Made by a program: the position numbers and the translations under genes
Part shown: positions 3,101 through 50,507 of the stretch, in pieces
Layout: each line of letters starts with the position of its first letter
Numbering within the stretch: position 1 is the stretch's first letter
The notes under the pieces: model-generated
What the model was told of the DNA's origin: nothing
Databases searched by the model: none
Seen by the model: only the letters and a program-made list of their open reading frames with translations
Virus record (IMG/VR): IMGVR_UViG_3300033077_000655
Reading direction: 5' to 3' (one strand)
DNA: 64,000 nt
DNA from: a virus
Lineage: Duplodnaviria > Heunggongvirae > Uroviricota > Caudoviricetes

Positions 3101-3114
3101 GTTAACCAAACCAC

Positions 3115-3143
3115 TTGCATGTAGTCAACACAGTTGCTATAAT
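3115..3143 (+). promoter_or_regulatory. sigma70-like promoter TTGCAT-N17-TATAAT upstream of the 3165 ORF
   Basis: TTGCAT at 3115-3120, a 17-nt spacer, TATAAT at 3138-3143. Confidence 0.45.
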
Positions 3144-3164
3144 GTATTTTTACTGGAGAACTCT

Positions 3165-3733: not shown

Positions 3734-3787
3734 GAATCGTTCACTACACGAACATGAAACACGGCCACCAGCCATAATTGGAGATAG

Positions 3788-7617: not shown

Positions 7618-8336
7618 AAGACCATCTCTTAGACCTAGTACAACACACATTTGATCTTGGATGTATTGACTTGATCAAAATCTCAGGCACCGATGCTGCC
7701 ACCGCAGTAAATGGTGTTGCTGCTGACAATTCAGTTATCTTGGAAGCACAATTTGCCAACCCTGTTGCTGAGTTTATTGGCACGTTTGGTATGCCCAATC
7801 TTGGTAAACTCAAGACCTTGCTTAACTTGCAAGAGTATCGTGAAGATGCCAAACTGGCCATCACACGCAGAACCACAGGTGAGCCTGATGGTATCAACTT
7901 TGAAAACAAAGATGGTGACTTCCGTAACAACTACAGATTCATGACCAGTGAAGTTGTGAATGACAAACTTAAAACTTTGAAATTCAAAGGTGTAAATTGG
8001 CACATCACTGTTGATCCCACAGTATCTGCTATTCAACGTTTGAAAATGCAGTTCCAGGCCAACTCCGAAGAAACAAACTTTCAAGTCAAAGTTGAAAACA
8101 AAAATCTAAAATTCTTCTTTGGAGATCATTCTACACACAGTGGTAATTTTGTGTTTCACCCTGACATTGTGGGAACACTTAAACGCACTTGGTCGTGGCC
8201 GGTGCAGCAAGTTATCAGCATATTGGGACTGGTTGGTGACAAGACCATGAAGATCAGTGATGACGGCTGTATGCAAATCACAGTGGATTCCGGCCTGGCC
8301 GTTTACAACTACATTTTACCTGCACAAACCAAGTGA
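7614..8336 (+). CDS. hypothetical protein
   Basis: ORF with overlapping start. Confidence 0.45.
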   Translation: MKDHLLDLVQHTFDLGCIDLIKISGTDAATAVNGVAADNSVILEAQFANPVAEFIGTFGMPNLGKLKTLLNLQEYREDAKLAITRRTTGEPDGINFENKDGDFRNNYRFMTSEVVNDKLKTLKFKGVNWHITVDPTVSAIQRLKMQFQANSEETNFQVKVENKNLKFFFGDHSTHSGNFVFHPDIVGTLKRTWSWPVQQVISILGLVGDKTMKISDDGCMQITVDSGLAVYNYILPAQTK

Positions 8337-9877
8337 TCAACCAAGACAATCTCACAGCCAAGCAACTGGACTATGCCGTTTTTCTTCCGGCCATCTCGGG
8401 ATTCTATGCCACGTTTGTGGGCAAGCAACGTAATGGACCTTATGTAGATCCTGCACGCATGCCAGCCGGACTGACTGACATGGAAATGATGAACTGGCTC
8501 AACAGTACCAAAGCATTGTTTCCGTACAAGTGGAGTTTGTATTCAGGTGGGCATGCCAATCTAGATCTTGCCAAGCAAGACTGGTCGGAAGACATGGTTC
8601 GCAATCGTGAACCTGGCACATTCATGCTAGGCGACTCGGGCGGATTCCAGATTGCCAAAGGCTTGTGGGAAGGTGATTGGAAAGCCAACTCAGGCTGTGC
8701 CAAAGCACAAAAGAAACGTGCTGCTGTGTTAACATGGCTGGACAGTGTGAGTGATTACGGAATGATCTTGGATATTCCTACCTGGGTTATTCATGACAAG
8801 AAAGCATCCAAGGCCTGTCAGATCACCACACTGCAAGAAGCAGTGGATGCTACCAAGTTCAACAATGAATACTTTATGGCCCATCGCCGGGGCAAAGAAA
8901 ACGGTGGTGCCAAGTTCTTGAATGTTTTGCAAGGTGACAATCATACTTCAGCAGAACAATGGTATCAGGAAATGAAAGACTTTTGCGATCCTATAAAGTA
9001 TCCCAACACACACTTTGATGGGTGGAGCATGGGTGGACAAAACATGTGCGATGTGCATCTGGTACTCAAACGACTGGTGGCTCTGCGACATGATAACTTA
9101 CTGCAACAGGGCAAGCACGATTGGATGCACTTCTTGGGCACATCAAAGCTGGAATGGGCAGTATTGCTTACGGTGATTCAGCGAGCCATTAGAAAATATG
9201 TTAACCCTGCCTTTACCATATCGTTTGATTGTGCCAGTCCATTTTTAGCCACTGCAAATGGACAAGTATATCATCACATTGATCTGGCACACAACGAAAA
9301 GTGGTGCTATAGAATGAGCCCTATTGCAGATGACAAGAAATACAGCACAGACACAAGACCTTATGGTACAGCAGTGGTAGCAGATGGCCTGGTCAATCAC
9401 TTTGATGAAAGCCCACTCAGTCGATTATTGACCATGAAGGATATATGCATCTACCGGCCCGGTGATCTAAACAAGATTGGTAAAGAAGGCAAAACAAGTT
9501 GGGATTCATTCTCGTATGCATTGTTGATGGGTCATAATGTTTGGATGCACCTGGAGGCAGTACAACGTGCCAATCGTACATTTGATTCTGGATCATGGCC
9601 TTACATGATGTGGGACGAAAAAGGTGATCACACTCACTTTGCAGACATTGTGGAGGCTATCTTTGCCACCGACGATCGTGCAGAGTCAGAAGCCATAATT
9701 GAATCCTACAACAGATACTGGATGGATATTATTGGTACTCGCGGATTCAAAGGCAAAAAGGCCATGAATGCCAATACACAGTTTTCGGCATTATTTGATG
9801 TGGTAGAGGTTGACTCAGACTCTGAAGATATGTTAAACTCTGAAGCATTACAACAACTTGAACAGGATCAAGTATGA
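8333..9877 (+). CDS. dpdA: tRNA-guanine transglycosylase-like protein, candidate DpdA-type 7-deazaguanine DNA transglycosylase
   Basis: Contains the LGDSGGFQIAKG motif matching the TGT-family catalytic DSGGFQ block. Lies in the same operon-like run as folE, queD and queE. Confidence 0.55.
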   Translation: MINQDNLTAKQLDYAVFLPAISGFYATFVGKQRNGPYVDPARMPAGLTDMEMMNWLNSTKALFPYKWSLYSGGHANLDLAKQDWSEDMVRNREPGTFMLGDSGGFQIAKGLWEGDWKANSGCAKAQKKRAAVLTWLDSVSDYGMILDIPTWVIHDKKASKACQITTLQEAVDATKFNNEYFMAHRRGKENGGAKFLNVLQGDNHTSAEQWYQEMKDFCDPIKYPNTHFDGWSMGGQNMCDVHLVLKRLVALRHDNLLQQGKHDWMHFLGTSKLEWAVLLTVIQRAIRKYVNPAFTISFDCASPFLATANGQVYHHIDLAHNEKWCYRMSPIADDKKYSTDTRPYGTAVVADGLVNHFDESPLSRLLTMKDICIYRPGDLNKIGKEGKTSWDSFSYALLMGHNVWMHLEAVQRANRTFDSGSWPYMMWDEKGDHTHFADIVEAIFATDDRAESEAIIESYNRYWMDIIGTRGFKGKKAMNANTQFSALFDVVEVDSDSEDMLNSEALQQLEQDQV

Positions 9878-10380
9878 TACGAGCAGGACACGACGATGTG
9901 GCATTCTTCACCGGCACAGAAGTAGAACACACACCCGCATTTGGTAAAAAGACATTGTTTGTAGTAGGCTTGCAGACAGCAGATGATATTGCTGCTCACA
10001 TGCAAGGTTGCGAACATATCTACTTTGGTGCCAATCACAGTTTTCCCAACATCAACACCGACGATTATGTCAAGTGGTCCCGATGGCAAGATATGATTTA
10101 TCCCTTGTTAGATCTTGGTTATCTATGTACATTGGATATCAATGTTGCTCAAGTGGAGGGAATGTTAGAAGGTTCATTCACCGAGTATCACAACTTCATC
10201 CCAATGATATCAGTCAAGCTACCATACATCAAACTGTTAGGCTATAACGCCACACTCAAGCTGGATGACAAGGATTTTGCTGCTACCAACCCAGGCGTTT
10301 GGTGTCACAGCATACATGAACTACAAAAACGAGACCACTTTACTGACTGGTCTAAATATACCAAGGATCAAGTATTATGA
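9874..10380 (+). CDS. hypothetical protein
   Basis: ORF with overlapping start, inside the deazaguanine module. Confidence 0.4.
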   Translation: MIRAGHDDVAFFTGTEVEHTPAFGKKTLFVVGLQTADDIAAHMQGCEHIYFGANHSFPNINTDDYVKWSRWQDMIYPLLDLGYLCTLDINVAQVEGMLEGSFTEYHNFIPMISVKLPYIKLLGYNATLKLDDKDFAATNPGVWCHSIHELQKRDHFTDWSKYTKDQVL

Positions 10381-10829
10381 ATGAACGCAATCAAGCCTTG
10401 GCTGACTCCCGCAAACAAATTAAAAATCATGCAACACGTACAATCTTTGTACGATTCCAAAAGGAAGGCATTCATTGCTATCCAGCAGCAGCTACAGATC
10501 CTGCACTGGCCACAGGTGATGAATACGATGTATCTTTCTTAGCAAGCCCACACCGTCACATATTTCACTTTGAAGTGACCATACAAGTATTCCACAACGA
10601 TCGTGATATTGAGTTTATTCAATTCAAACGCTGGTTAGAAAATCTCTATGCCGGTGGCACATTAGAACTCAACTACAAGAGTTGTGAAATGATCAGCGAT
10701 GATTTGTATGAACAAATTGCTGCTCGCTATCCGGAACGTGGCATCATTATCAGTGTAAGCGAAGATGGTGAAAACGGTGCAACAATCAGTTATAATCTAA
10801 CACAACCTTATCAATCAATCAAACTCTAA
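10377..10829 (+). CDS. hypothetical protein
   Basis: ORF with overlapping start. Confidence 0.4.
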   Translation: MNERNQALADSRKQIKNHATRTIFVRFQKEGIHCYPAAATDPALATGDEYDVSFLASPHRHIFHFEVTIQVFHNDRDIEFIQFKRWLENLYAGGTLELNYKSCEMISDDLYEQIAARYPERGIIISVSEDGENGATISYNLTQPYQSIKL

Positions 10830-10838
10830 GAGGAAACT

Positions 10839-11063
10839 ATGGCTAAAATTATTATCAAAAGCAATCCACGTACTGAACAAACCTGGGAGGAACTGGATCA
10901 ATATCGTGAGTTTTGCGTAGACTACGGATACAAGTTCAATGAGGCGGATCTGTATAACTTCCGCAGTTATGCATTCCAACAGTTCAACAAACATACTCAA
11001 GGCAAGCCTGCCAAGAACATGTGGGATGAAGACACTCGTCGACTGGCAGGATACCGCACATGA
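10839..11063 (+). CDS. hypothetical small protein
   Basis: RBS aggaaact precedes the ATG. Confidence 0.35.
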   Translation: MAKIIIKSNPRTEQTWEELDQYREFCVDYGYKFNEADLYNFRSYAFQQFNKHTQGKPAKNMWDEDTRRLAGYRT

Positions 11064-12229
11064 GAAAACTCTACTACATGGGACTAGAGCCCTATAAAGC
11101 ACGTTATACATTGCAATTGCAAGACTGGAATACTGCGGTGTTTGGTAAAAGAGGCATCAACTATGTTGTTGTGCCCGGTGAAACACTCAGCAACGACCAA
11201 GCAATTGTTACTGGGCAAGTGCTAGATGCCCACGGTCGAACATACTTTGGTATGAGTCAACTTATGAATCTAGTTAAGATGATGAAGGCCGGAGAACTCA
11301 ACAATGAAGATGTTATCTACTTTGAGGACATGTTTCAACCTGGCATTGAATCATTACCGTATATTCTTAAACAAATCGACCCAATTTTCAGGCCTAGGAT
11401 TTATGTTCGCTGTCTTGCTCAGTCCATTGATCCTGATGATTTTGTTCACGTTTGGGGTATGCAGCATTTTATGGCAGCATATGAGTACATGGTTGACTCG
11501 TTCGTAGATGGTATACTTGCTACCAATGAAGAAATGGTAATGCACATGAAGATTGCAGGGTGGGGTGCCCCAATCTATAATATCTCAGGATTGGCATTTG
11601 GCAAGAGTGAAGTACAAAGTCGTGTGGATAGTATCAAACCATTCAACGACCGTAAATTTCGTGTGGTATTTTCTGCACGTTGGGATCAAGAAAAGCAACC
11701 GGACTTTTACATGGATTTAGCAGAACGTGTGAAAGAAAAGAGTCCATTGATTGAGTTTTGTGTATGTAGTGGTAGTAAATTAAAATCCAATAATGATAGT
11801 TACATGGCACGTACTAGAGATTTGCAAGATCGAGGTATATTAACAATTTACGAAGATTTAGAAAAGAATGATTACTACAATATTGTTAATGACAGTCGTG
11901 TTGTGTTTAATTGTGCCCTTCAAGACTGGGTTTCAAACACGGTCTCGGAAGCAGATGCTCTTGGGTGTAATGTTCTATACCCTGCTTATCGTAGTTTCCC
12001 TGAGACTTTTAGTAATGATCATTCCAGACTTTATGTACCCTGGTCAATAGAAGACGCAGAAGCAAAATTGATTCCGTTATTGTATAATCCAAGTCCTAAC
12101 ATGGGCAAGATTAGTGACCGTAATGATAGCACTATAGACAGAATCTGTGATATACTTGAGGGCAAGGGCGAAGATATGCTGCGAATGGGCGTGGACTATC
12201 GCAAGCACACTCGAGAAAGCAAATACTAA
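11060..12229 (+). CDS. glycosyltransferase-like protein (GT-B C-terminal domain-like)
   Basis: C-terminal half has alternating beta-alpha character with acidic residues, typical of group-1 GTs. Weak. Confidence 0.4.
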   Translation: MRKLYYMGLEPYKARYTLQLQDWNTAVFGKRGINYVVVPGETLSNDQAIVTGQVLDAHGRTYFGMSQLMNLVKMMKAGELNNEDVIYFEDMFQPGIESLPYILKQIDPIFRPRIYVRCLAQSIDPDDFVHVWGMQHFMAAYEYMVDSFVDGILATNEEMVMHMKIAGWGAPIYNISGLAFGKSEVQSRVDSIKPFNDRKFRVVFSARWDQEKQPDFYMDLAERVKEKSPLIEFCVCSGSKLKSNNDSYMARTRDLQDRGILTIYEDLEKNDYYNIVNDSRVVFNCALQDWVSNTVSEADALGCNVLYPAYRSFPETFSNDHSRLYVPWSIEDAEAKLIPLLYNPSPNMGKISDRNDSTIDRICDILEGKGEDMLRMGVDYRKHTRESKY

Positions 12230-12230
12230 A

Positions 12231-13184
12231 ATGACTGTGGTAGTAACTGGTGCAGCAGGATATATTGGTGGGCAAATAGCATTGGCCTTGAAGGATTCTG
12301 GTCATGAGGTCATTGGCATTGATCGTCGACCGTGCCCCAAACACCTCGACGAAGCGTTTATTAAGTTTATTCAAGCTGACTTTGACAGTGATCAAGCCAA
12401 AACAAAAATGTTGCAAGTTGGTCCTGCCACAATCATCCACTGTGCCGGCACTAGTTTGGTAGGCCCTAGCGTTAAATATCCCGGTGACTACTATCACAAC
12501 AATGTGATTAAAACCATCCACTTGTTGGATTTTGTGGTCAATGCCTTGCCCAAGACCAGAATTATCTTTAGTTCAAGTGCATCTGTGTATGGCGAACCTA
12601 TCATGACTCCGTGTGCAGAAGTAGATCCGTGTGCGCCTATGAGTCCTTACGGTGAAAGCAAACACATGATTGAACAAGTGTTAGCTAGCTATCATCGTGC
12701 ATACCGTCTTGACTATGTGGCATTTCGTTACTTCAATGCTTGCGGTGCCGATCGACTGGGCCGACATGGACAGGAACCTGGTGCCACTCATGTGATTGCT
12801 AGAATCTTAGAAGCCACACGTGATAACAAACAGTTTTCCTTGTATGGTGATGATTACGAGACCCACGACGGAACTTGTATACGTGATTATGTGCATGTGG
12901 AAGATATTGCGCATGCTCATGTGTGTGCATTGGACGCTGCTGTGCCCTCTGGCGTTTACAATCTAGGCACAAACAATGGTACCAGTGTGAAAGAAATCTT
13001 GGCATGCGCTGCTGCAATTGCAGGCAAGGTGCCAGTATTGCTAGAGCCTCGACGTGAGGGTGATCCTGCTGTGCTTACTGCTAGTGCAGCAAAGTTTGGT
13101 ATGCTGATGCCAAATTGGCGTCAGTACACACTGGACGATATAATTCAACACGCATGGGCTTGGTATGTTCGAAAAAATCCTTGA
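12231..13184 (+). CDS. NAD-dependent epimerase, UDP-glucose 4-epimerase (GalE)-like
   Basis: Begins MTVVVTGAAGYIGG (Rossmann GxxGxxG); YFNACGA motif. Start moved to the ATG at 12231, directly after the upstream stop. Confidence 0.75.
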   Translation: MTVVVTGAAGYIGGQIALALKDSGHEVIGIDRRPCPKHLDEAFIKFIQADFDSDQAKTKMLQVGPATIIHCAGTSLVGPSVKYPGDYYHNNVIKTIHLLDFVVNALPKTRIIFSSSASVYGEPIMTPCAEVDPCAPMSPYGESKHMIEQVLASYHRAYRLDYVAFRYFNACGADRLGRHGQEPGATHVIARILEATRDNKQFSLYGDDYETHDGTCIRDYVHVEDIAHAHVCALDAAVPSGVYNLGTNNGTSVKEILACAAAIAGKVPVLLEPRREGDPAVLTASAAKFGMLMPNWRQYTLDDIIQHAWAWYVRKNP

Positions 13185-13761
13185 ATTTGAACGGGCACTA
13201 GCCCGGTTCACTGGTGCTCCTGCTGCAATCATGACCGATTGCTGCACACATGCCATTGAGATGTGTCTGCGATATGAGCAAGTGAAGGGTCTCAAGATGA
13301 CTCCTTACACTTACTTGAGTGTGCCTATGACCATGCACAAGTTAGGCATTGATTATGTGTATCTGGATGAACCTGAACAAACATGGTCGGGCGAATACAA
13401 TTTCATATACACTAGAGTTTGGGATAGTGCTAGAAGATTGGAACCTGACATGTATCGTACAGGACAGATGCAATGCTTGAGTTTTGGACATTCTAAGCCT
13501 TTACAAATAGGGCATGGTGGTGCTATACTGTTAGATAACAAGCAGGCCTACAACATGATAATAAAACAACGATATGATGGTCGTGACCTAAATATCTCAC
13601 CCTGGAACAAACAAAAAACATTCCAGGTGGGATATCACTACAAACCCTCAATCGAAGATGCTGAACGTGGACTAGAGTTACTTGAGCAGTACAAGTCTGC
13701 ACCTGAACACCCCAAGTTTGTACAGTATCCAGATTTGCGAAACATAACCATTAAGGAATAA
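13165..13761 (+). CDS. DegT/DnrJ/EryC1-like aminotransferase fragment (short)
   Basis: N-terminus FERALARFTGAPAAIMTDCCTHAIEMCL resembles sugar aminotransferases. Only 198 aa, so truncated or divergent. Confidence 0.4.
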   Translation: MFEKILEFERALARFTGAPAAIMTDCCTHAIEMCLRYEQVKGLKMTPYTYLSVPMTMHKLGIDYVYLDEPEQTWSGEYNFIYTRVWDSARRLEPDMYRTGQMQCLSFGHSKPLQIGHGGAILLDNKQAYNMIIKQRYDGRDLNISPWNKQKTFQVGYHYKPSIEDAERGLELLEQYKSAPEHPKFVQYPDLRNITIKE

Positions 13762-13762
13762 C

Positions 13763-14551
13763 ATGCCAGAATTTAAACTAGATCCAATCATACATCCAAG
13801 CACTGACGAGTTTGTTCCGCTAGAAGGACAAAACTTATATGTAAAGAAAACAGACACAGCACAAGGCCGGTATCTAAGCACAGCAATTCGCGAACGTATG
13901 CAAGCAGATGGCAAGAGATTCTGGGCCGGAGACAACATCAGCGACTACTTAACTAAATCTGATCGAGAACATTTGATCAATGAAGCTACTGTGGCATTTG
14001 AAGGTGTGTTGGACACATTGCTGATAGATAGACAAAACGATCCCAACTCAAAAGGCACAGCCAAACGATTGGCCAAAATGTATTTTACTGAAATCATGGA
14101 AGGTCGATATGAACCAGCACCGGACGCAACAGCTTTTCCAAATGATTCACAAGACCGGTATGAAGGCATGCTTGTGGTTAGAAGTGAACTACGTTCAATG
14201 TGTTCGCACCATCATCAACCTGTTAGCGGTGTTGCTTATATTGGTATTATTGCCGCCAACAAACTTATTGGTTTGTCTAAGTATACTCGTATTGCTCAAT
14301 GGTGTGCGCGACGCGGTACGCTACAAGAAGAACTGTGCAACGACATTGCAAGAGAGATTAGCAAAGCCACTGACAGTGAGAATGTTGGTGTGTACATTGA
14401 AATGACACACGGATGCGTAGAAAATAGAGGAGTAATGGCTCATAATAGTCTAACACAAACCACTGTGCTCAAAGGTGCTTTCTTAAAAGACCCAGGAACA
14501 AAGAAAGAGTTCTTTGACAATATTAAACTACAAGCAAGGAATGGCAACTAA
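13763..14551 (+). CDS. folE: GTP cyclohydrolase I (FolE)
   Basis: Motifs CSHHHQPVSGVAYIGI and IGLSKYTRI match the FolE active site. Confidence 0.85.
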   Translation: MPEFKLDPIIHPSTDEFVPLEGQNLYVKKTDTAQGRYLSTAIRERMQADGKRFWAGDNISDYLTKSDREHLINEATVAFEGVLDTLLIDRQNDPNSKGTAKRLAKMYFTEIMEGRYEPAPDATAFPNDSQDRYEGMLVVRSELRSMCSHHHQPVSGVAYIGIIAANKLIGLSKYTRIAQWCARRGTLQEELCNDIAREISKATDSENVGVYIEMTHGCVENRGVMAHNSLTQTTVLKGAFLKDPGTKKEFFDNIKLQARNGN

Positions 14552-14627
14552 CTCAAATTATGATAAAACTTAAAATTGGCTGCTGTAAAAACAGTGGTAT
14601 CAAACTACAACAAGAGTTTGCACCGCG

Positions 14628-15032
14628 ATGATCAATTACGAAACACTAGATGAAGCCCAAGCTGCCGGTGTGGCACCGTGGGACCAACAGGTACAAGAAC
14701 TGAGTGATTTTCATATCACTGTGTTTGAAGATCGCTATCCTGTCACACGTGGTCATTTGTTGTTTGTGCCCAACTACAATACTGATGCAGTGATTATTGA
14801 CTGCATGGAATCTGCCATGTTGTATGGTCGCCGCTTGGTAGAACAAGGCAACTGTGAAGGATTTAACATTGGTATCAACATGGGCACTGCTGCTGGACAA
14901 ACAGTTATGTATCCACATGTGCATTTGATTCCACGCCGGCTGGGTGACACTGCCAATCCTGTTGGCGGGGTGCGTGGAGTTATATTTGGACAAGCTGACT
15001 ATAAAGCCACAGGTTATCAACCACCGATATAA
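14628..15032 (+). CDS. HIT-like nucleotide hydrolase/transferase
   Basis: YPHVHLIPR histidine-triad-like motif. Confidence 0.4.
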   Translation: MINYETLDEAQAAGVAPWDQQVQELSDFHITVFEDRYPVTRGHLLFVPNYNTDAVIIDCMESAMLYGRRLVEQGNCEGFNIGINMGTAAGQTVMYPHVHLIPRRLGDTANPVGGVRGVIFGQADYKATGYQPPI

Positions 15033-15086
15033 ATACTCATACACCGGCCTTTGGCGTTCATCCCGGTATACAAACTCTGCTGCCTA

Positions 15087-15095
15087 TGCTATAAT
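15087..15095 (+). promoter_or_regulatory. extended -10 element TGcTATAAT upstream of queD
   Basis: TGCTATAAT at 15087-15095, about 20 nt before the queD start. Confidence 0.35.
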
Positions 15096-15112
15096 CAACA
15101 TAGGAGAAAATC

Positions 15113-15586
15113 ATGGCAAAATACATTTCCACAAAAACATACAAACAAATAGGTCCAGTGGCCTATCGTCAATGGCGGGCCGATAGTCATTGCAGACTGA
15201 TACACGGATATGCACTTTCATTCCATCTGGAGTTTGAATGTAATACACTGGATGCTCGAAATTGGTGCATGGACTTTGGAGGACTTAAACCTCTCAAAGG
15301 ATTATTGGAAGATTGGTTTGATCACACATTGCTAGTGGCACAAGATGACCCAATGCGTGAACATCTGTTAGAACTTGGTAGATTGAAACTGGCCAAGATT
15401 ACAGAAGTGGAACGCACAGGTTGCGAGGGTATTGCTGACTTTTTGTATGAATACATCAACACTATTTTTTTGCCAAACTGCGGAGAAAAAGAACGTGTTT
15501 GGTGCAGTAGGGTAGAAGTTCGAGAAACTGATGCCAATATGGCCATGCGTGTGGGGCACAGAGAAGATAACGAATTCCAAAACTAA
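15113..15586 (+). CDS. queD: 6-carboxytetrahydropterin synthase (QueD/PTPS-like)
   Basis: CRLIHGY motif of the Cx3HGH type; PTPS size; adjacent to folE and queE. Confidence 0.7.
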   Translation: MAKYISTKTYKQIGPVAYRQWRADSHCRLIHGYALSFHLEFECNTLDARNWCMDFGGLKPLKGLLEDWFDHTLLVAQDDPMREHLLELGRLKLAKITEVERTGCEGIADFLYEYINTIFLPNCGEKERVWCSRVEVRETDANMAMRVGHREDNEFQN

Positions 15587-16416
15587 TGGACATTAGTATT
15601 TTATTGCCCACCCGGGCTCGGTCTGATGCTCTCATGAGCAGCATTGAAAGTCTTTACAATCTTGCTGACAATCCAAATACCATTGAATTTTTGTTTGGTA
15701 TAGACAATGATGATGTAGCAGGCATGGAAAATATGCTGCATAATGTGATTCCCTGGATTGAAAAATACTCAGTAAATCACAAGATAGTCGTATCTGAACG
15801 ATTTGGGTATGTTAAACTACACAAGTATTTCAATGGCCTAGCAGAGCATAGTCAAGGATCTTGGTTGTTTATCTGGAATGATGATGCTGTGATGAAAACC
15901 AAATCATGGGATACCAAGATCCTTGAAAAGTCTGGACAGTTTAAACTACTAAGTGTGCATTCACACAATGACCATCCTTATAGCATATTCCCTATCATAC
16001 CAAGAGCATGGTTTGAGGTGTTAGGGCATCTAAGTCAACACAGTTTGAATGATGCTTATGTGAGTAACATTGCATATTATCTAGACATATTTGAACGTAT
16101 TGATGTACATTGTGATCACGATCGATTTGATATAACAGGTGCCAACAATGATGATACATACAATCAACGTGAAATCATGGAGGGCTATCCGGATCGGGCT
16201 GGAGACTTTAATCATCCTGATATGGTGCAACTACGTCTCAACGATTTAATAACCTTGGCAAATTGGATGCAAACTCAAGGCATGGATACTGAATTTTTCA
16301 CTGATTGTTGTAACAACACCCAGGATCCATGGGTTAAATTACGTGCCAATGATACAAACAATCAAGTCTCTATCTTTCAGGTTGGGCGGGGTCAAAACAA
16401 ATCAATCACTGAGTAA
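15586..16416 (+). CDS. GT-A-like glycosyltransferase candidate (paralog A)
   Basis: LLPTRAR...GIDNDD pattern resembles GT2 IPTYNR...DxD. Paralogous to 18471..19316. Confidence 0.4.
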   Translation: MDISILLPTRARSDALMSSIESLYNLADNPNTIEFLFGIDNDDVAGMENMLHNVIPWIEKYSVNHKIVVSERFGYVKLHKYFNGLAEHSQGSWLFIWNDDAVMKTKSWDTKILEKSGQFKLLSVHSHNDHPYSIFPIIPRAWFEVLGHLSQHSLNDAYVSNIAYYLDIFERIDVHCDHDRFDITGANNDDTYNQREIMEGYPDRAGDFNHPDMVQLRLNDLITLANWMQTQGMDTEFFTDCCNNTQDPWVKLRANDTNNQVSIFQVGRGQNKSITE

Positions 16417-16458
16417 TTAGTTTTATATAATTCAGAATCCAGATACAATAAGTATATA

Positions 16459-18465
16459 ATGAAGAACAAAATTGCCTGGGTTCAACCCAATTTCCAACAA
16501 GGGCCTGCAGAGTTTAATGCATATTACTTGCCCTACTCAGCCGGTGTGGTATGGAGTTACAGTCTAGCTGATCCTTGGATTCGAGAACGGTTTGAAGCCA
16601 CTGATTGGGTATGGCGTAGAGACGCTGTAGAACCATTGGCACAAAAACTGGCACAAAACGACATTGTGACTTTTAGTACCTATGTGTGGAATCATCGTTA
16701 CAATTATGCTGTGGCCAAACGCATCAAGGAAATCAATCCTGCTGTATTGACTGTATTTGGTGGCCCTGAAGTTGCTATAACCGACCCTGACCTGTTTGTT
16801 AAAGAATCTTTTATGGATCTTGTGATTTGCTACGAAGGCGAAATAACTTTCAAACGTGTGCTACAGCACTTTGAAACTAAAGATTGGGAAAATGTACCTG
16901 GACTGTTGATCAACAGAAATGGCCGCGCAATACAAACACAGGATTCTAAACGTATTGAGTCATTAGAGGAAGTGCCCAGCCCGTACTTGGCAGGCATCTT
17001 TGACCAGATGATTGCCGATCATCCTGACATAACATGGCAAGGCACATTAGAAACCAATCGTGGTTGTCCGTTTGCTTGTACATTCTGTGACTGGGGTAGT
17101 TTGACCTACAACAAAGTTAAAAAGTTTGAACTTGAACGTGTGTTTGAAGAACTAGAATGGATGGCCAAACGCAACTTTGATTGGATCTCAATTACCGATG
17201 CTAACTTTGGTATGTTCCCCGAACGTGATGGTATGATTGCTGACAAGATAATTGAGTGCCAAGAAAAATACGGTTCTCCACGCACGTTTAGTGTGGCCTG
17301 GGCTAAAAATCAAAAGAAAGAAGTGATCGACATTGTAAAGAAACTGTTGGATGCTCGTGGCTTCAATCAAGGATTAACACTCAGTGTACAAAGCCTTGAC
17401 CAGGATGTGTTGGAAAATATTCGCCGCAAAAATATGGAAATGAACAAACTGGAGGAAGTGTTTGAATTATGTGATCAGCGTAATATTCCTGCATACACAG
17501 AACTCATACTTGGGTTGCCTGGTGAGACATTGACCACCTGGAAGAAAAACTTTTATGCATTGTACGAGTTAAATCAGCACACTGGCATTACTGTGTTTCA
17601 AGCGCAGTTGTTGGAAAATGCCGAAATGAACTTGTTGCAAAAGAAACTGTTCAAGATCACCAGCCAACCTGTTACAGATTACTTTGCTGGCAGTTACAGC
17701 GTGGAACACATTGAAGAAAGCATTGACGTTATCACCGGCACCAAAGACATGCCCACACCAGTGATGTTGGATGCACAGATCTTTTCCTGGTTCCAGACCA
17801 CATTCCACATAAATGGATTTGCCACATTGATTGCTAGATTTATCAACAAATACACAGGTATAAGTTACAATGATTACTATGAAGAGTTGTTTGCATATTT
17901 TATGACCAATGAGTGGTTGAAGAAAGAACAAAACGAAGCAAGACAATACTTTTCTAATTGGATGACCACTGGCCGAATCAACCATCCCAAGATTGGTGTG
18001 GAAATACACGGGTGGAACATCATACACAGAACCAGCATGAACATGCATCAAGAAGATCGGGTAGATGAGTTGTATGATTTCTTGGAAATATTTTTGCAAC
18101 GATACAATCTACCCGAAGATTTATCAACCAGTCTGATGAAACTACAAAGAAGTTACTACATCAAGTACAATGATAGAAATCAATATCCTATGAATCTTAA
18201 GTTAGATTATAATATTTGGGATTACTTGAGTTTTAATCAACCCTTGACAAAGACTTCTACAACATATCGATTGGACTTTCCAGAGGATAAAACTATGAGT
18301 CTTAATCGATTCTTAGAACTGTTTTATTTTGCAAGACGCAGAAACTTTGGTAAAGCCACTGTGGATCTTGTGGGAGTCGAAAATGCCAATGGAACACAAC
18401 GTGGTGCTGGGAGTGCCAAAGCACAAGGCAGTTTTTCTGTGAAGAAAAAATTATTAACCATATAA
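16459..18465 (+). CDS. B12-binding-domain radical SAM protein
   Basis: NRGCPFACTFCDW (Cx3Cx2C) follows an N-terminal Rossmann-like B12-binding-like domain. Confidence 0.7.
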   Translation: MKNKIAWVQPNFQQGPAEFNAYYLPYSAGVVWSYSLADPWIRERFEATDWVWRRDAVEPLAQKLAQNDIVTFSTYVWNHRYNYAVAKRIKEINPAVLTVFGGPEVAITDPDLFVKESFMDLVICYEGEITFKRVLQHFETKDWENVPGLLINRNGRAIQTQDSKRIESLEEVPSPYLAGIFDQMIADHPDITWQGTLETNRGCPFACTFCDWGSLTYNKVKKFELERVFEELEWMAKRNFDWISITDANFGMFPERDGMIADKIIECQEKYGSPRTFSVAWAKNQKKEVIDIVKKLLDARGFNQGLTLSVQSLDQDVLENIRRKNMEMNKLEEVFELCDQRNIPAYTELILGLPGETLTTWKKNFYALYELNQHTGITVFQAQLLENAEMNLLQKKLFKITSQPVTDYFAGSYSVEHIEESIDVITGTKDMPTPVMLDAQIFSWFQTTFHINGFATLIARFINKYTGISYNDYYEELFAYFMTNEWLKKEQNEARQYFSNWMTTGRINHPKIGVEIHGWNIIHRTSMNMHQEDRVDELYDFLEIFLQRYNLPEDLSTSLMKLQRSYYIKYNDRNQYPMNLKLDYNIWDYLSFNQPLTKTSTTYRLDFPEDKTMSLNRFLELFYFARRRNFGKATVDLVGVENANGTQRGAGSAKAQGSFSVKKKLLTI

Positions 18466-18470
18466 AATAA

Positions 18471-19316
18471 TTGTTAAAAATTATGGATTTTAATTTCGAG
18501 TATGATATCGGGGTGTTGTTGCCTACCCGAGGAAGAACCACCGCACTAATGACCAGTGTGAAATCACTGTATGATCATGCAGCTGATCCCAAGTCAATGA
18601 GATTACTATTGGCATTTGATCAAGACGATTCAGTTGGACTGGAATATTTTAACACTGATTTAAAACCATGGTTAGATTTGATCGGTGCAGAATATTTGGC
18701 TTTGAATTTTGTTCCGTTAGGCTATATACGCCTGAATGAATATGTGAATTTCTTGGCAAAACACGTTGATGCTCGATGGTATCTAGTCTGGAACGATGAT
18801 GCAGTAATGACCACTCCCCATTGGGATAACGTGATTCGACAATACAACGATCAATTTGCATTGCTGCGAGCAGAAACCAATCATGATCATCCATATGCTA
18901 TTTTTCCTATCCTGCCAAAAAAATGGTTAGAACTTACCGGACACATATCACCACATCAACTCAATGATGCGTGGACCAGCCAGGTTGCATGGATGTTGGA
19001 CGTTGTGATTACTATACCTGTGATGATCGAACACCAACGATTTGATCTCACCGGCAAGAATGGTGACGATGTGTTTATGAATCGTCCTATGCTAGAAGGT
19101 AATCCTACACATACTAGAGATTTTAATCATATTTCATGGCGTATGCGCCGACAGGATGATGCTGCAAAGATTGCACATTATTTGGAAAAATTAGGATATG
19201 ACCTGACACATTTTAAATTGGGTATAGAAAACAAAATTGACATCTGGCATAAGATGTTGAAATTAGACACCAAGGGGCTAATGAAATCATGGAGCAGCAC
19301 TGATCTTGAAAAATGA
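18471..19316 (+). CDS. GT-A-like glycosyltransferase candidate (paralog B)
   Basis: VLLPTRGR...AFDQDD; clear paralog of 15586..16416, including shared HNDHPY, IFPI and HQRFD blocks. Confidence 0.4.
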   Translation: MLKIMDFNFEYDIGVLLPTRGRTTALMTSVKSLYDHAADPKSMRLLLAFDQDDSVGLEYFNTDLKPWLDLIGAEYLALNFVPLGYIRLNEYVNFLAKHVDARWYLVWNDDAVMTTPHWDNVIRQYNDQFALLRAETNHDHPYAIFPILPKKWLELTGHISPHQLNDAWTSQVAWMLDVVITIPVMIEHQRFDLTGKNGDDVFMNRPMLEGNPTHTRDFNHISWRMRRQDDAAKIAHYLEKLGYDLTHFKLGIENKIDIWHKMLKLDTKGLMKSWSSTDLEK

Positions 19317-20085
19317 ACTTGTAGACCGAATTAAACAGTATTGGAATACTCAGCCTTGCAACGTCAAGCACAGTCTTAGTGTTCCGGGCACAGAACAGTA
19401 TTGGAATGAAGTTTCCAAACGTAGATTCTTTGTAGAACCCCATCAATTTGACTTTGCTAGCTTTAATCTTTGGCACGGTAAACGTGTTTTAGAAATAGGA
19501 TCCGGAATCGGAACCCATGCTGTGGAGTTTGCACGTCACGGTGCTGACTATGTGGGGATCGATCTTTCAGCAGAGTCGGTGGCCATGAGTCAACAACGAT
19601 TTGAACTGTTTGGATTAACTGGCAAATTCCATGTGATGGATGGCGCCGACTCTGCTGCGGTTGCTGGTCTAGGAAAATTTGATCTAGTATACAGTTGCGG
19701 GGTATTGCACCACTATCCGGACATGACCGCTTGTTTGAATAACATCCATGCTGCATTAGTACCCAACGGAGAGTTCCGTATGTTGGTATACGCAAAGAAC
19801 TCATGGAAGTACGCCATGATCCAAAAAGGTCTAGATCAATTTGAAGCACAAGCAGATTGCCCGTATGCCAAGGCCTATAGCAAAGAAGAAATTTATGATC
19901 TCTTAAAAGGACAATTTGAGGTACAAAGCATTAGACAAGATCATTGTTTCATGTATAATGTAGTTAAGTATCGCACTGGCGAGTACGAATTGGAGCCTTG
20001 GTTTGCTGCCATGCCCGAAGACATGCGAGCAGCAGTTAAAGAATATCTAGGTTGGCATTTGTTAATTAAAGCACAAAAAATATGA
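19306..20085 (+). CDS. class I SAM-dependent methyltransferase
   Basis: VLEIGSGIGTHAVEF motif I and DLVYSCGVLHH. Confidence 0.65.
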   Translation: MKNELVDRIKQYWNTQPCNVKHSLSVPGTEQYWNEVSKRRFFVEPHQFDFASFNLWHGKRVLEIGSGIGTHAVEFARHGADYVGIDLSAESVAMSQQRFELFGLTGKFHVMDGADSAAVAGLGKFDLVYSCGVLHHYPDMTACLNNIHAALVPNGEFRMLVYAKNSWKYAMIQKGLDQFEAQADCPYAKAYSKEEIYDLLKGQFEVQSIRQDHCFMYNVVKYRTGEYELEPWFAAMPEDMRAAVKEYLGWHLLIKAQKI

Positions 20086-20945
20086 GCAAACTAAAAGTAG
20101 CAGAATTGTTTTACTCAATTCAAGGGGAAGGTAGATATATGGGGGTACCCAGCGTCTTCTTGAGAACTTTTGGCTGCAATTTTTCTTGCAAGGGCTTCGG
20201 CATGCCACGTGGCGAACTCAGCAAGGAAGCTGATGAAGTAGCAGTAATGAATGCCATGCATCGATTTGAGAAATATGAAGAACTTCCACTTGTTAGCACA
20301 GGATGTGACAGCTATGCTAGTTGGCATCCTGACTTCAAGAATCTAAGTCCCATGCTGACCAGTGATGCTATCGTAGATCGCATTATGGATATTATTCCGT
20401 ACAAAGAATGGCGTGACGAGCATCTTGTGATCACAGGTGGCGAGCCATTGCTAGGCTGGCAACGTGCATATCCTAGTTTATTAGACAATCCCAAGATGGC
20501 AAGTCTTAAAGAAATTACGTTTGAAACCAATGGTACTCAAGAACTCAGCACTGAGTTTAGAAAGTATTTGTTAAATTGGACACTAGGTAACAAGGCACGT
20601 GGCCGAGAAGCATTGACATTTAGTGTGAGTGCTAAACTGCCTTGTTCAGGTGAGAAGTGGTCGGATGCTATTTGTCCTGAGATTGTGTGTCAATATCAAG
20701 ATGTTGGGCACACATACTTGAAACTGGTAATTTCTACCAATGAAGATTTTGCAGATGCTCAACGTGCAGTGGCAGAATATCGTGCAGCTGGATTCAAGGG
20801 TCATGTGTATTTGATGCCTGTTGGTGGAGTTGAAAGTGTATATGCGTTGAACAATAAGAATGTAGCTATTTTGGCCATGAATCATGGTTGGCGTTACAGT
20901 GATCGACTTCAAGTACCATTGTTCAAGAACGAATGGGGCACCTGA
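20082..20945 (+). CDS. queE: 7-carboxy-7-deazaguanine synthase (QueE)-like radical SAM
   Basis: N-terminus AELFYSIQGEGRYMGVPSVFLRTFGCNFSC resembles QueE. Confidence 0.65.
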   Translation: MSKLKVAELFYSIQGEGRYMGVPSVFLRTFGCNFSCKGFGMPRGELSKEADEVAVMNAMHRFEKYEELPLVSTGCDSYASWHPDFKNLSPMLTSDAIVDRIMDIIPYKEWRDEHLVITGGEPLLGWQRAYPSLLDNPKMASLKEITFETNGTQELSTEFRKYLLNWTLGNKARGREALTFSVSAKLPCSGEKWSDAICPEIVCQYQDVGHTYLKLVISTNEDFADAQRAVAEYRAAGFKGHVYLMPVGGVESVYALNNKNVAILAMNHGWRYSDRLQVPLFKNEWGT

Positions 20946-22069: not shown

Positions 22070-22797
22070 GGCTGTACGTCAACGGCGATAGCCATACAGC
22101 AGGTGCAGAAGCAGTATCACCGGCAGCATTTGCCGAGGATGATGGCCATCCTGAACTGGGGCGCCGACCACATCCTGCTAATCTAGCAGTAAGCTGGGGA
22201 CAACAACTGGCTGACAAATTAGGCATTGAATTGGTATGTGATGCTGAATCTGCTGCATCTAACTACAGAATTCTTCGTACCACACGAAACTGGATGAATA
22301 GTTTACAGCCCTGGGAATCGGCGGTGGCAATCATACAGTGGAGCACTTGGGAGCGCGAAGAGTGGTTGCACAATGGTGAATACTTGCAAGTAGGCAGTTC
22401 GGGTCTGGATTTGGTTCCTGACGAACTAGCGGATCAGTACAAGCGATTTGTAGTTGGTGTAGATTGGACTTGGTGCCAACAATACTGGCACGATGAGATT
22501 TGGCAACTGCATCAGGACCTGGATGCAGCAAAGATCCCGCATGTGTTCTTTAACGGCAACAATTCATTTGATCGAATCCGTAATGGTGCCTGGCACCAAG
22601 TTGATTGGAACAACGCATACATCGCACCATATTCAGAATACACTTACGATCATATACTACGTGAAGCCAATTTTGTCACGGTGAATCCTGAGTCCTGGCA
22701 TTTCGGTAAAGATGCCCATTGCTTTTGGGCTGAATTTGTGTTACAATACTGTATAGAAAACAATATATTGGATCCCCATGCGATATCTCTTGATTGA
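22066..22797 (+). CDS. SGNH/GDSL-like hydrolase candidate
   Basis: N-terminus LYVNGDSHTAG resembles SGNH block I. Paralogous to the interrupted gene at 45596-46245. Confidence 0.45.
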   Translation: MRLYVNGDSHTAGAEAVSPAAFAEDDGHPELGRRPHPANLAVSWGQQLADKLGIELVCDAESAASNYRILRTTRNWMNSLQPWESAVAIIQWSTWEREEWLHNGEYLQVGSSGLDLVPDELADQYKRFVVGVDWTWCQQYWHDEIWQLHQDLDAAKIPHVFFNGNNSFDRIRNGAWHQVDWNNAYIAPYSEYTYDHILREANFVTVNPESWHFGKDAHCFWAEFVLQYCIENNILDPHAISLD

Positions 22798-23800
22798 TAC
22801 AGCTAACACTTTTTTCCGTGCTCGCCACTCTGTTTTCCGTGCTGCTGATGCTTGGGAAAAAGTAGGATATGCTTTACACATTGTGATGAGTAGTGTGAAC
22901 AAAGTACACAAACAGTTTCAAGCAGATCACGTGATTTTCGCACTAGAAGGGCGATCATGGCGCAAGGACTTTTATGGTCCCTACAAGAAAAACCGCGCTG
23001 TGGCTCGTGCTGCATTATCGGATACAGAACAAGAAGAGGATAAATTGTTTTGGGAAACCTATGATAGCCTCACTAAATACTTGGCTGAAGGTACTAACTG
23101 TAGCGTTATCCGACATCCTGAAGCCGAAGCAGACGACGTGATTGCTCGCTGGATAGCCTTGCATCCGCAGGACGAGCACTACGTGATTTCATCAGACACA
23201 GATTTTGTGCAATTACTAGCACCCAATGTTAGCCAATATAATGGCATTACCGATGAACTTCACACGGTAACAGGCATATTTGATGCCAAGGGCAAGCGTG
23301 TGAAAGACAAAAAGACCAAGACAGACAAAGTGATTCCTGATCCAGAATGGCTGTTGTTTGAAAAATGCATGCGTGGTGATACGTCTGATAACGTATTTTC
23401 GGCGTATCCTGGTGTGCGAACCAAAGGCACCAAAAACAAAGTTGGCTTGCAAGAAGCATTTGAAGACCGCAATAACAAAGGCTTCAATTGGAACAATCTC
23501 ATGTTACAACGTTGGTCTGACCACAATGGTGACGAACATCGTGTGAAAGACGACTACGAACGCAATCGTGTACTGATTGATCTCACTGCACAACCCAAAG
23601 AGATCAAAGACAAAGTGGATGGTGCGATACGTGAACAGATCAGCCACAAAGACATTGGCCAAGTTGGCGTGCGATTCATGAAGTTCTGCGGCAAGTACGA
23701 ACTCAACAAAATATCTGAGTCAGCGGAGCAGTATGCTCGCTGGCTTAACGAAACCTATAAAGGAACACTAGATGAGCATCATAGCCAAGCCCATAGTTAA
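22778..23800 (+). CDS. 5'-3' exonuclease / flap endonuclease (T4 RNase H-like)
   Basis: N-terminus MRYLLIDTANTFFRA (PIN-like); acidic clusters throughout. Confidence 0.6.
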   Translation: MRYLLIDTANTFFRARHSVFRAADAWEKVGYALHIVMSSVNKVHKQFQADHVIFALEGRSWRKDFYGPYKKNRAVARAALSDTEQEEDKLFWETYDSLTKYLAEGTNCSVIRHPEAEADDVIARWIALHPQDEHYVISSDTDFVQLLAPNVSQYNGITDELHTVTGIFDAKGKRVKDKKTKTDKVIPDPEWLLFEKCMRGDTSDNVFSAYPGVRTKGTKNKVGLQEAFEDRNNKGFNWNNLMLQRWSDHNGDEHRVKDDYERNRVLIDLTAQPKEIKDKVDGAIREQISHKDIGQVGVRFMKFCGKYELNKISESAEQYARWLNETYKGTLDEHHSQAHS

Positions 23801-24230
23801 AGATCAGTTTTACATCCTTACACAGGATGATAAAAAGGTCGGCAACATCGAAGCCACAGGAGATGGCTTTGCAGTCAGGATCAACAATCGGGTCATGCCA
23901 TTCAAGACCATTGCAATGATCCGCAAACAAGTTGATATTGAATTTCCAGCAGTGGGTAACAAACCCAATCGAGAACCTGCTAGTTTTCAAGTACAAGGTT
24001 ATCCATCAGGATCTCGAGTATACAATCCCATTTGGGATGTGCAACACAAACTGCCATTGTATACTAAGAATCGCAAGTCACGTTCGTGGTTTGCAGCCGG
24101 ATGGTATCAGGTCAAACAACGACGAACCTGGACTATTGTACAAAGCCCTAAACTCATTACCTTGGAACGTTATCAGTATCAAGGTCCATTTTATACCCGA
24201 GAAGAAGCCAATGTTAAATCCCTTCCGTGA
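23772..24230 (+). CDS. hypothetical protein
   Basis: ORF whose 3' end overlaps the MazG start. Confidence 0.35.
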   Translation: MSIIAKPIVKDQFYILTQDDKKVGNIEATGDGFAVRINNRVMPFKTIAMIRKQVDIEFPAVGNKPNREPASFQVQGYPSGSRVYNPIWDVQHKLPLYTKNRKSRSWFAAGWYQVKQRRTWTIVQSPKLITLERYQYQGPFYTREEANVKSLP

Positions 24231-50310: not shown

Positions 50311-50319
50311 CCCAAACAT

Positions 50320-50391: not shown

Positions 50392-50401
50392 CCAGCCAAA
50401 T

Positions 50402-50490: not shown

Positions 50491-50507
50491 CCACACATAA
50501 GTAATGA

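Follow-up and report, generated by a model that had tools for sequence, protein, structure and literature searches.

The gene block and its surroundings

We analyzed a 64,000-nucleotide stretch of DNA from a tailed phage (Caudoviricetes; IMG/VR record IMGVR_UViG_3300033077_000655), referred to here at its full length as the window, and focused on a block of genes in which sugar- and methyl-modifying enzymes are interleaved with those of a DNA deazaguanine pathway. An original prediction made from the letters of this DNA had named a series of such enzymes between positions 11060 and 20085, and had suggested either that they decorate the deazaguanine or another base, or that they make a separate glycan. 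Annotation with profile hidden Markov models found all of the named open reading frames (ORFs) at 11060-20085 on the + strand. The genes of the block, followed by those that flank it, are:

8333-9877, + strand: DpdA-like DNA guanine transglycosylase of the TGT superfamily, nearest the DpdA3 type; 514 aa, with a DSGGFQ motif
9874-10380, + strand: g168, a conserved partner protein with homologues in the marine lineage L082 and in phage ACP17
10377-10829, + strand: DpdL homologue, a QueD paralogue and proposed decarboxylase of 7-carboxy-7-deazaguanine (CDG); 150 aa, with an LxxxHRHxF signature
10839-11063, + strand: g74, a short conserved ORF immediately preceding the GT-B gene
11060-12229, + strand: GT4-like glycosyltransferase of the GT-B fold and the island's core sugar enzyme; weak match to PF00534 (Glycos_transf_1)
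12231-13184, + strand: GalE, UDP-hexose 4-epimerase; TIGR01179 at 291.9 bits against a cutoff of 262.3, PF01370 at E 4e-55
13165-13761, + strand: mini-DegT, a small DegT/DnrJ/EryC1-like pyridoxal phosphate (PLP) protein of 198 aa; PF01041 at E 3e-13
13763-14551, + strand: FolE, GTP cyclohydrolase I; PF01227 at E 5e-38
14628-15032, + strand: HIT-family nucleotide hydrolase or transferase; PF01230 at 34.3 bits against a cutoff of 21.5
15113-15586, + strand: QueD, 6-carboxytetrahydropterin (CPH4) synthase; PF01242 at E 2e-15, 70% identical to ACP17 QueD
15586-16416, + strand: GT-A fold glycosyltransferase, paralogue 1; phrog_14945 ("glycosyltransferase") at E 7e-14
16459-18465, + strand: cobalamin-dependent radical S-adenosylmethionine (SAM) protein, a TokK/CysS/KedN5-like C-methyltransferase; PF02310 and PF04055
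18471-19316, + strand: GT-A fold glycosyltransferase, paralogue 2 (GT-A2); shares its motifs and 38% identity with paralogue 1
19306-20085, + strand: class I SAM-dependent methyltransferase; PF08242 and PF13649 at E ~1e-16, phrog_22502 at E 7e-55
20082-20945, + strand: QueE, CDG synthase (radical SAM); QueE NCBIfam models at E ~3e-14, below their cutoffs
3788-6454: family-B DNA polymerase, the upstream flank of the block
22778-23800: 5'-3' exonuclease, the downstream flank of the block
23932-24603, + strand: MazG-like nucleotide pyrophosphohydrolase; PF01503 at E 7e-9, phrog_671 at E 2e-37

The region from 6 to 24 kb of the window is one uninterrupted array of + strand genes and, as had been predicted, the sugar and methyl genes at 11060-20085 are tightly packed among folE, queD and queE. 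At most junctions the start and stop codons overlap or abut. There are 4-nt overlaps at dpdA/g168, g168/dpdL, g74/GT-B and methyltransferase/queE, while galE and the degT-like gene overlap by 20 nt, GT-A2 and the methyltransferase gene by 11 nt, and queD and the first GT-A gene by 1 nt; the widest gaps measure 76, 80 and 42 nt. Inside the block, the + strand showed no convincing candidate for a terminator, terminator-like sites were no commoner than in shuffled sequence, and a promoter scan returned sites at chance level. Co-transcription, which had been proposed from the overlapping starts, is plausible given this gene arrangement. Because the polymerase, exonuclease and MazG-like genes and an RNA ligase gene flank it, the block is considered part of the replication module. 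The MazG-like gene is a possible accessory of the island, its membership being uncertain. Megablast of the 9-kb block produced 0 matches in 50,697 phage records.

The deazapurine core

The window DpdA had no sequence match in Pfam, NCBIfam, PHROG or the PDB. An exhaustive search gathered a family of 953 representatives, and D101 (in DSGGFQ) and D299 (in FDC) were among the sole invariant residues in an alignment of 63 family members. A profile of those 63 sequences aligned with E. coli Tgt in hhalign over 179 columns (probability 89.5%, E 2e-6), running through the TGT motifs DSGGFQ, LQG, GG and FDC in canonical order; the single-family comparison with Tgt was weak (12.7%) and the relationship is convincing only with the 63-sequence profile. 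A Pfam scan of the 63 relatives returned weak TGT (PF01702) matches for two. The DpdA profile also matched ACP17 DpdA (hhalign 96.8%) and phiST DpdA3 (73%), and the window protein is 34% identical to gp316 of phage PA5oct. With its two catalytic aspartates, the window DpdA has the makeup of a TGT-superfamily transglycosylase.

DpdL has been defined by its LxxxHRHxF signature and its co-occurrence with DpdA, FolE, QueE and QueD without QueC (PMC10516641), and the product of 10377-10829 agrees with this definition in both respects. Its signature reads LASPHRHIF in place of the CxxxHGH of QueD. It aligned with the DpdL of phiST (gp040/CGPG_00067) with hhalign 99% and E 7e-18, is 56-69% identical to its counterparts in ACP17, PA5oct and Phosso, and matches phrog_17812. 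That this ORF (g150) might be a second QueD was considered and rejected, based on the motif and these homologies.

FolE, QueD and QueE are encoded together in the window, as expected of a phage deazaguanine system, and the window QueE shares 30% identity with the PA5oct protein that bears the same annotation. With E. coli QueC as query, tblastn detected no homologue in the window, where the best E was 5.7, nor in any of 165 related loci. The absence of QueC indicates that the phage pathway branches at CDG and DpdL, toward CDG and 7-deazaguanine, and not along the preQ0 branch.

The nearest described counterpart of this core is the DpdA3-DpdL system of phages phiST and CP220, in which 2'-deoxy-7-deazaguanine (dDG) or its amido derivative dADG replaces dG (PMC10516641). 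Shared with the window are the set of FolE, QueD and QueE lacking QueC, a DpdL that bears the LxxxHRHxF signature, a divergent TGT-like DpdA, and a MazG-like gene nearby (beside DpdL in phiST). Unlike the window, the phiST cluster is without the GT-B, g168, GalE, DegT, HIT, GT-A, cobalamin radical SAM and SAM methyltransferase genes; phiST DNA carries plain dDG, and the phiST DpdA has 259 aa compared to ~514 aa in the window.

The GT-B glycosyltransferase and its partner g168

Sequence and profile searches of the PDB gave no significant match for the GT-A, DpdL, g168, GT-B or DpdA proteins, and for this reason we predicted structures of the GT-A and GT-B proteins. The GT-B model had a pLDDT (predicted local distance difference test) of 71.5, with a partly poor N-domain and residues 120-177 below 50. 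In a comparison with models of viral proteins, its second-best match, and the best of those with a name, was the ACP17 protein adjoining DpdL. Fold similarity to the T4 α-glucosyltransferase AGT was also seen, and in the island both types of transferase lie in a DNA-metabolism neighbourhood. The GT-B family is large, with at least 8000 protein clusters (90% identity) found by the window query and the same bound reached with the PA5oct homologue, and it occurs in freshwater and marine viromes.

The g168 protein had no match in Pfam, PHROG or the PDB and is recognized by the motifs TLFVVG, HIxFGANHSF and LKxDDxxFxATNPGVW. Its homologue in the marine lineage L082 (8788-9300) is 51% identical, and that in ACP17 lies directly upstream of DpdA (hhalign 98.3%, E 1e-14). 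It therefore travels with DpdA, DpdL and GT-B in the window lineage, in the marine lineage and in the T4-like phage ACP17. A further g168 position is 7323-7718 of locus L086. Two candidates for its identity, the short-chain dehydrogenase/reductase (SDR) of PA5oct and a Phosso "glycosylase", were tested, and g168 matches neither. Profile searches likewise gave no family match for g74.

Predicted donor-sugar, GT-A and methylation enzymes

GalE, whose ATG start at 12231 was checked, scores within TIGR01179 and carries the GxxGxxG (GAAGYIG) and YxxxK (YGESK) motifs. In the mini-DegT that follows it, two segments, residues 6-74 and 98-140, pair with positions 35-106 and 174-216 of DegT enzymes of solved structure, and the PLP lysine K111 (SFGHxK) and D87, invariant in 17 diverse homologues, align with those enzymes as well. 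About 45 internal residues (profile positions ~100-170) and the C-terminal domain are missing, and at 198 aa the protein falls short of the full two-domain DegT enzymes (~360-390 residues). Because of these missing segments, we call it DegT-like and stop short of naming it a true aminotransferase. It had been described as truncated, and it is indeed short; that it is a decayed fragment does not hold, since all related loci long enough to include it retain it, with 53-82% identity. The same conservation, with the invariant lysine and aspartate, led us to reject a pseudogene remnant. The HIT protein has the motif YPHVHLI where the family has HxHxHxx, the first histidine being replaced by tyrosine and the central and last retained. 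Of the solved chains, those most like it are a HIT family protein and Ap4A phosphorylase, and it is 49% identical to the HIT of the marine island L082.

The two GT-A-like proteins were confirmed as paralogues sharing LLPTRxR, FDxDD and WNDDA motifs. Neither had a Pfam match in the window; some relatives carry PF00535. The AlphaFold2 model of paralogue 1 (pLDDT 88.8) has a GT-A fold, and its best solved Foldseek matches were PcManGT, RmlT, TarP and TarS (E 3e-9 to 1e-7). Relatives with ~29-41% identity were observed in other genomic settings. In locus L171, one (2156-3007) lies directly upstream of terminase large subunit and portal genes (2946-4448, 7786-9987), and in the pelagiphage HTVC008M (locus L087, 6983-8074) another lies in a cluster with a methyltransferase, a carbamoyltransferase, a PP-loop "NAD synthetase" and a UDP-glucose dehydrogenase, with no deazapurine genes nearby. 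A GT-A profile search of genome contigs found six contigs from metagenome-assembled genomes; one was a misbinned island, and the other five had no deazapurine genes and largely unannotatable neighbours.

Between the GT-A paralogues lies the cobalamin radical SAM protein, which aligned with TokK (7kdx; E 2.4e-79, residues 22-482) and CysS (E 3.7e-49). TokK and CysS are cobalamin-dependent methylases of sp3 carbons. The window protein has the features of the class B enzymes TokK, ThnK, CysS and KedN5, namely an N-terminal B12 domain, a CxxxCxxC core (here CPFACTFC) and solved relatives. It scored 260.6 bits against the cutoff of 700 of the KedN5 model NF033712 (E 2e-77), matching with its N-terminal 390 residues only, a score too low for assignment to that subfamily. 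Whereas those enzymes belong to antibiotic clusters, the window protein is encoded in a phage DNA-modification island. The class I methyltransferase at 19306-20085 is weakly similar to small-molecule O- and carboxyl-methyltransferases. Its identification as DpdM was rejected, as DpdM is a DUF3109 metal protein and not a class I SAM enzyme.

Linkage across related phage loci

About 250 related phage loci (numbered with the prefix L) were compared overall. One set comprised 80 IMG/VR loci seeded with the radical SAM protein, with counts limited to loci with sufficient flank, and another comprised 80 loci seeded with GT-B, of which 70, those with an upstream flank of 3.5 kb or more, were counted. 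DpdA and DpdL were both present in 70/70 of the GT-B-seeded loci. This decisively contradicts the possibility, raised with the original prediction, that homologues of the block's genes are never linked to dpdA in related phages. g74 was found in 62 of the same 70 loci and g168 in 29, including all those that also have GalE or DegT.

The radical-SAM-seeded loci were just as uniform. GT-A was adjacent to the radical SAM gene in 74/74, at a median distance of 42 nt, and QueE lay downstream in 74/74; QueD was present in 65/65, FolE in 46/46, HIT in 44/46, and GalE with mini-DegT, which co-occur, in 31/31. GT-A2 and the methyltransferase were found solely as a pair and in a minority of loci: all eight related loci with the methyltransferase also have GT-A2, seven showing both GT-A copies and the eighth (L057) being cut upstream. 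In most radical-SAM-seeded loci (e.g., L070, 11977-12636), the gap between the radical SAM gene and queE, which in the window holds GT-A2 and the methyltransferase gene, contains a gene for a ~219-aa protein that has an FGCSFT motif at its N-terminus, resembles SGNH/GDSL hydrolases by eye and has no Pfam match.

Taken together, the accessory genes form a nested series at one site: none, then g168, then with GalE, DegT, HIT, the GT-A/radical SAM pair and finally GT-A2 with the methyltransferase added in turn. Among GT-B-seeded loci we recorded 20 with no accessory gene, three with g168 only, one extending to GalE, 11 to mini-DegT, one to HIT and one to the GT-A/radical SAM pair. The accreted enzymes were always located between deazapurine genes, and in L170 the GT-A/radical SAM pair remains between queD and queE despite an inverted order.

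The decorating genes also show mosaicism between close genomes. In L100, the neighbouring genes are 94-100% identical to those of the window, yet GT-B is 81% and GalE 87% identical; in L098, DpdA is 93% identical to the window, GT-A 69% and the radical SAM protein 54%. The converse was also seen in the comparison with the window, which covered L100, L098 and L002-L081, the radical SAM protein being 86-92% identical in genomes with a GT-A of only 45-49% identity. These sequence differences suggest cassette exchange or diversifying selection, and swaps of decorating genes between close genomes fit an arms race.

Cultured phages and distant lineages

Several cultured phages carry the same association. 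In PA5oct, GT-B likewise adjoins DpdA and DpdL, its homologue gp317 (hhalign 97%) being the gene directly after DpdA. In the T4-like phage ACP17 the whole module consists of seven genes, QueD, FolE, g168, DpdA, GT-B, DpdL and QueE, with GT-B between DpdA and DpdL. In Phosso, DpdL and FolE flank GT-B, QueE is close by, and a DpdA-like match is ~170 kb away. By tblastn, GT-B and DpdL are a few kb apart in Xanthomonas phages BUDD and X1 and in Burkholderia phage BCSR5.

Two of these phages have been studied experimentally. At G-containing sites the DNA of PA5oct withstands restriction, and nucleases that sense hypermodified DNA attack it, the modification itself being without chemical identification (PMC12191111). 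The ACP17 DpdA and DpdL alone gave no dDG in E. coli, and the authors considered that other enzymes were perhaps needed (PMC10516641). The GT-B and g168 of the ACP17 module are not discussed in the main text of that paper.

The marine lineage L082 has DpdA, g168, DpdL, g74 and GT-B in the window order, and its island additionally holds an SDR, three 2-oxoglutarate (2OG) oxygenases and a phosphoribosyltransferase (PRTase). The 2OG-Fe(II) oxygenase genes are at 17-553, 7989-8597 and 11855-12496 and are candidates for making a hydroxyl acceptor in that lineage; they belong to families other than the TET/JBP dioxygenases. PRTase genes (PF00156) were observed inside the islands of PA5oct (L001, 15946-16380) and L082 (12489-13037); none was seen in the window cluster. 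Locus L093, from a sister lineage, has other, non-orthologous genes in the slots of the window enzymes: a cytidylyltransferase-like gene between folE and queD (9804-10262), where the window has HIT, and a SPASM radical SAM gene between queD and queE (10819-11913), where the window has GT-A and the cobalamin radical SAM gene. It also has a further weak GT-B after queE (13272-14639).

A proposed hypermodification pathway

The block appears to be the most elaborate variant of a widespread hypermodification island of large and jumbo phages, situated between the family-B polymerase and 5'-3' exonuclease genes. Because a conserved core holds interleaved tailoring genes that are lineage-specific, nested and swappable, we read the island as a single diversifying pathway. 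We hypothesize, and give the hypothesis an even chance on the sequence comparisons, that this one pathway glycosylates and methylates the deazaguanine inserted by DpdA.

Based on homology, FolE, QueD and QueE would convert GTP to CDG and, with no QueC, the phage would make no preQ0. The DpdL homologue, a proposed CDG decarboxylase in the literature, would act on CDG, and the divergent TGT-superfamily DpdA would swap DNA guanine for the deazaguanine. The later steps are suggested by gene linkage. GT-B would move a first hexose from a nucleoside diphosphate (NDP) sugar to the deazaguanine, most likely on DNA, as the T4 glucosyltransferases do on 5-hydroxymethylcytosine (5hmC), transfer to the free base being less likely. 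GalE and mini-DegT may alter the donor sugar to its 4-epimer and possibly to a 4-amino sugar, and the HIT protein may supply a nucleotidyl-transfer or hydrolysis step in donor supply. GT-A would then add a further sugar, an sp3 carbon of which the adjacent TokK-like radical SAM enzyme would C-methylate, and one more residue would be attached by GT-A2 and methylated by its obligate partner, the SAM methyltransferase. The predicted product is a bulky glycosylated, methylated 7-deazaguanine that would shield the DNA from restriction enzymes. The folds suit these roles: TarP, one of the best solved matches of the GT-A model, is also the top PDB homologue described for GT-A enzymes of phage DNA (10.1101/2023.12.21.572611), which have epimerases and secondary glycosyltransferases in their vicinity, and the radical SAM protein is nearest to methylases of sp3 carbons. 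The PA5oct restriction data and the ACP17 expression result described above also fit the pathway.

The combination of folds has a parallel in vertebrate tRNA, where QTGAL and QTMAN comprise one enzyme of GT-A type and one GT4 enzyme of GT-B type, the same fold pair as in the window. Their products, galactosyl- and mannosyl-queuosine, are the sole known glycosylated 7-deazaguanines in nucleic acid (PMC12518689). These enzymes differ in that the substrate is RNA and the sugar is placed on the queuosine cyclopentenediol; the phage cannot make queuosine because it has no QueC, QueF, QueA or QueG.

A second sugar cluster and other window genes

A second, separate sugar-tailoring cluster is located at 48784-61988, in a stretch of low GC content (0.33-0.39). 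Its recognizable genes are:

48784-50310 and 50508-52154: two more B12-binding radical SAM proteins
55585-56814: NDP-sugar C-methyltransferase; PF08484
57768-58430: GT34-like transferase
58427-59251: SDR epimerase/dehydratase
59876-60490 and 60487-60972: split transketolase

Two Methyltransf_24 proteins and a DUF6165 protein are also encoded there. From its gene content, this cluster looks like a branched or methylated deoxysugar pathway.

Upstream of the island, a 388-aa ORF at 6451-7617, between the polymerase and the g240 protein, contains a class I methyltransferase-like GGTFLFSFNN stretch; it had no significant family match and is kept at 31-61% identity in some relatives (L026, L070, L097 and L098). 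Elsewhere in the window (31611-32405, 33618-34289, 35978-37282 and 41985-42743), unusual auxiliary phage genes were observed, encoding an SPFH/Band 7 protein, a biotin-protein-ligase N-terminal domain, a TctA-family tricarboxylate transporter subunit and a small radical SAM protein.

Weighing the hypothesis against alternatives

Several observations weigh against a pathway that decorates the inserted base. The most direct concerns the chemistry, as the unsubstituted 7-deazaguanine expected from DpdL offers no obvious hydroxyl acceptor, and the window cluster showed no hydroxylase. The sites left for the sugar would be N2, as in huimycin and dapiramicin, O6 or a CDG carboxylate, unless DpdL is not a decarboxylase. 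The structural predictions are of limited specificity, with the GT-B model being moderately confident and the fold matches being to generic GT4 and GT2 enzymes and not specific to DNA-acting ones. Some phages encode GT-A relatives of ~40% identity with no deazapurine genes in the vicinity, mini-DegT may have lost its catalytic activity, and the phage probably makes other modified sugars through the 48.8-62 kb cluster. The PRTases of PA5oct and L082 hint at a nucleotide-level deazapurine route that the model leaves unexplained. Finally, the locus counts overstate independence because many loci share ancestry and conserved synteny, so that the independent support for the linkage comes from about five distant lineages.

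With these points in mind, the two readings offered by the original prediction fare differently for different genes. Decoration of the base is favoured for GT-B, based on its linkage to DpdA and DpdL, and is less settled for the GT-A, radical SAM and methyltransferase genes; the making of a separate glycan is weakened, retaining some probability for those same three.

In the latter explanation, the sugar genes would serve virion protein glycosylation or host surface polysaccharide remodelling unrelated to DNA, and the region between polymerase and exonuclease would simply collect early or middle metabolic genes. We consider this unlikely overall, while noting that it is the strongest of the alternatives. 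Among solved structures, teichoic-acid and polysaccharide transferases come closest to the GT-A model, GT-A relatives sit beside terminase and portal genes and in the pelagiphage sugar cluster, a phage with so large a second sugar cluster clearly invests in glycans, and the acceptor problem described above would disappear. It does not readily account for the company that GT-B keeps, which includes DpdA and DpdL in every counted locus and DpdL in unrelated cultured phages such as ACP17. Nor does it account for the arrangement of the block, whose genes are interleaved through overlapping start and stop codons and do not form a neighbouring block, whose GT-A/radical SAM pair stayed between queD and queE after an inversion, and whose location is the replication module and not the structural module.

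A second alternative, which we regard as improbable, is that the product is a metabolite for host takeover: a free deazapurine glycoside resembling huimycin or dapiramicin, a nucleotide-level precursor, or a pterin glycoside made by FolE, a PTPS-like T-fold protein, an SDR and a BGluT-like GT4 enzyme. The huimycin route joins FolE, QueD, QueE and QueC with a base-acting glycosyltransferase and a SAM methyltransferase, and the huimycin and dapiramicin enzymes act directly on 7-deazaguanine to give an N2-glycoside and an O6-methyl group (PMC7439116). Their existence establishes that glycosylation and methylation of the base are available chemistry, and the PRTases in the islands of PA5oct and marine relatives would suit such a route. 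However, these clusters belong to bacterial secondary metabolism, yield a free small molecule and characteristically have no nucleic-acid insertion enzyme (neither DpdA nor TGT), whereas DpdA with both catalytic aspartates is found in every relative; the window has no QueC, which the huimycin core requires; and QueE would serve no purpose in making a pterin glycoside.

The remaining alternative is that the island gathers two independent modifications and that a different DNA base, such as a hydroxymethyl pyrimidine made elsewhere, is the one glycosylated. The comparison is with T4 AGT and BGT and the phage 5hmC glycan clusters (10.1101/2023.12.21.572611), which share with the window GT-A and GT-B enzymes amid DNA metabolism, epimerases and secondary glycosyltransferases nearby, and TarP, the top PDB homologue of the phage DNA GT-A enzymes, among the top solved GT-A homologues. 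Those systems act on a hydroxylated pyrimidine supplied by a ThyS-like hydroxymethylase or TET-like dioxygenase, whereas the partner in the window is a purine-replacement system, and the R...DDD...EDY/F motif set of the 5hmC GT-A enzymes was not recognized in the window GT-A family. All characterized phage DNA glycosylations are on 5hmC, 5-hydroxymethyluracil (5hmU) or 5-hydroxycytosine, the GT-A and GT-B folds suit that enzymology, and 64 kb is visible of a genome of probably 300 kb or larger; we nevertheless rank this explanation as the least probable, because no ThyS-like hydroxymethylase or TET/JBP-type dioxygenase was found among the Pfam-scanned window ORFs or in related loci, where few extra ORFs were scanned (L002, L070, L082, L093 and PA5oct), because GT-B tracks DpdL and DpdA specifically, and because the PA5oct restriction data indicate a modified G.

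Implications for phage DNA modification

To our knowledge, the known 7-deazaguanine modifications of DNA carry small substituents only (cyano, amido, aminomethyl, methyl or formyl derivatives, carboxy and hydrogen), and all known DNA glycosylations are on pyrimidines. In the literature searched, coverage of which was incomplete, we found no report of a glycosylated 7-deazaguanine in DNA or of a glycosyltransferase linked to DpdL. The closest precedents are the galactosyl- and mannosyl-queuosine of tRNA and N-glycosides of the huimycin type. We consider it possible, and slightly less probable than the pathway as such, that these phages carry a sugar-bearing 7-deazaguanine, in the window a C- and O-methylated di- or trisaccharide, that would be the first glycosylated DNA purine, and that GT-B with g168 is an obligatory third component of the DpdA3/DpdL system. 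If so, the need for GT-B and g168 would explain the failed reconstitution with ACP17 DpdA and DpdL, and the identity of the G modification in PA5oct, a therapeutic jumbo phage, would also be explained. The question is directly testable in cultured members of the group, namely PA5oct, ACP17, Phosso, Xanthomonas phages BUDD and X1 and Burkholderia phage BCSR5.

A sugar-decorated deazaguanine would constitute a new chemical class of DNA base. It would influence the behaviour of such phage DNA during sequencing and cloning, would be relevant to defence and counter-defence involving type IV restriction, END nucleases and DNA glycosylases, and would provide new enzymes for DNA labelling.

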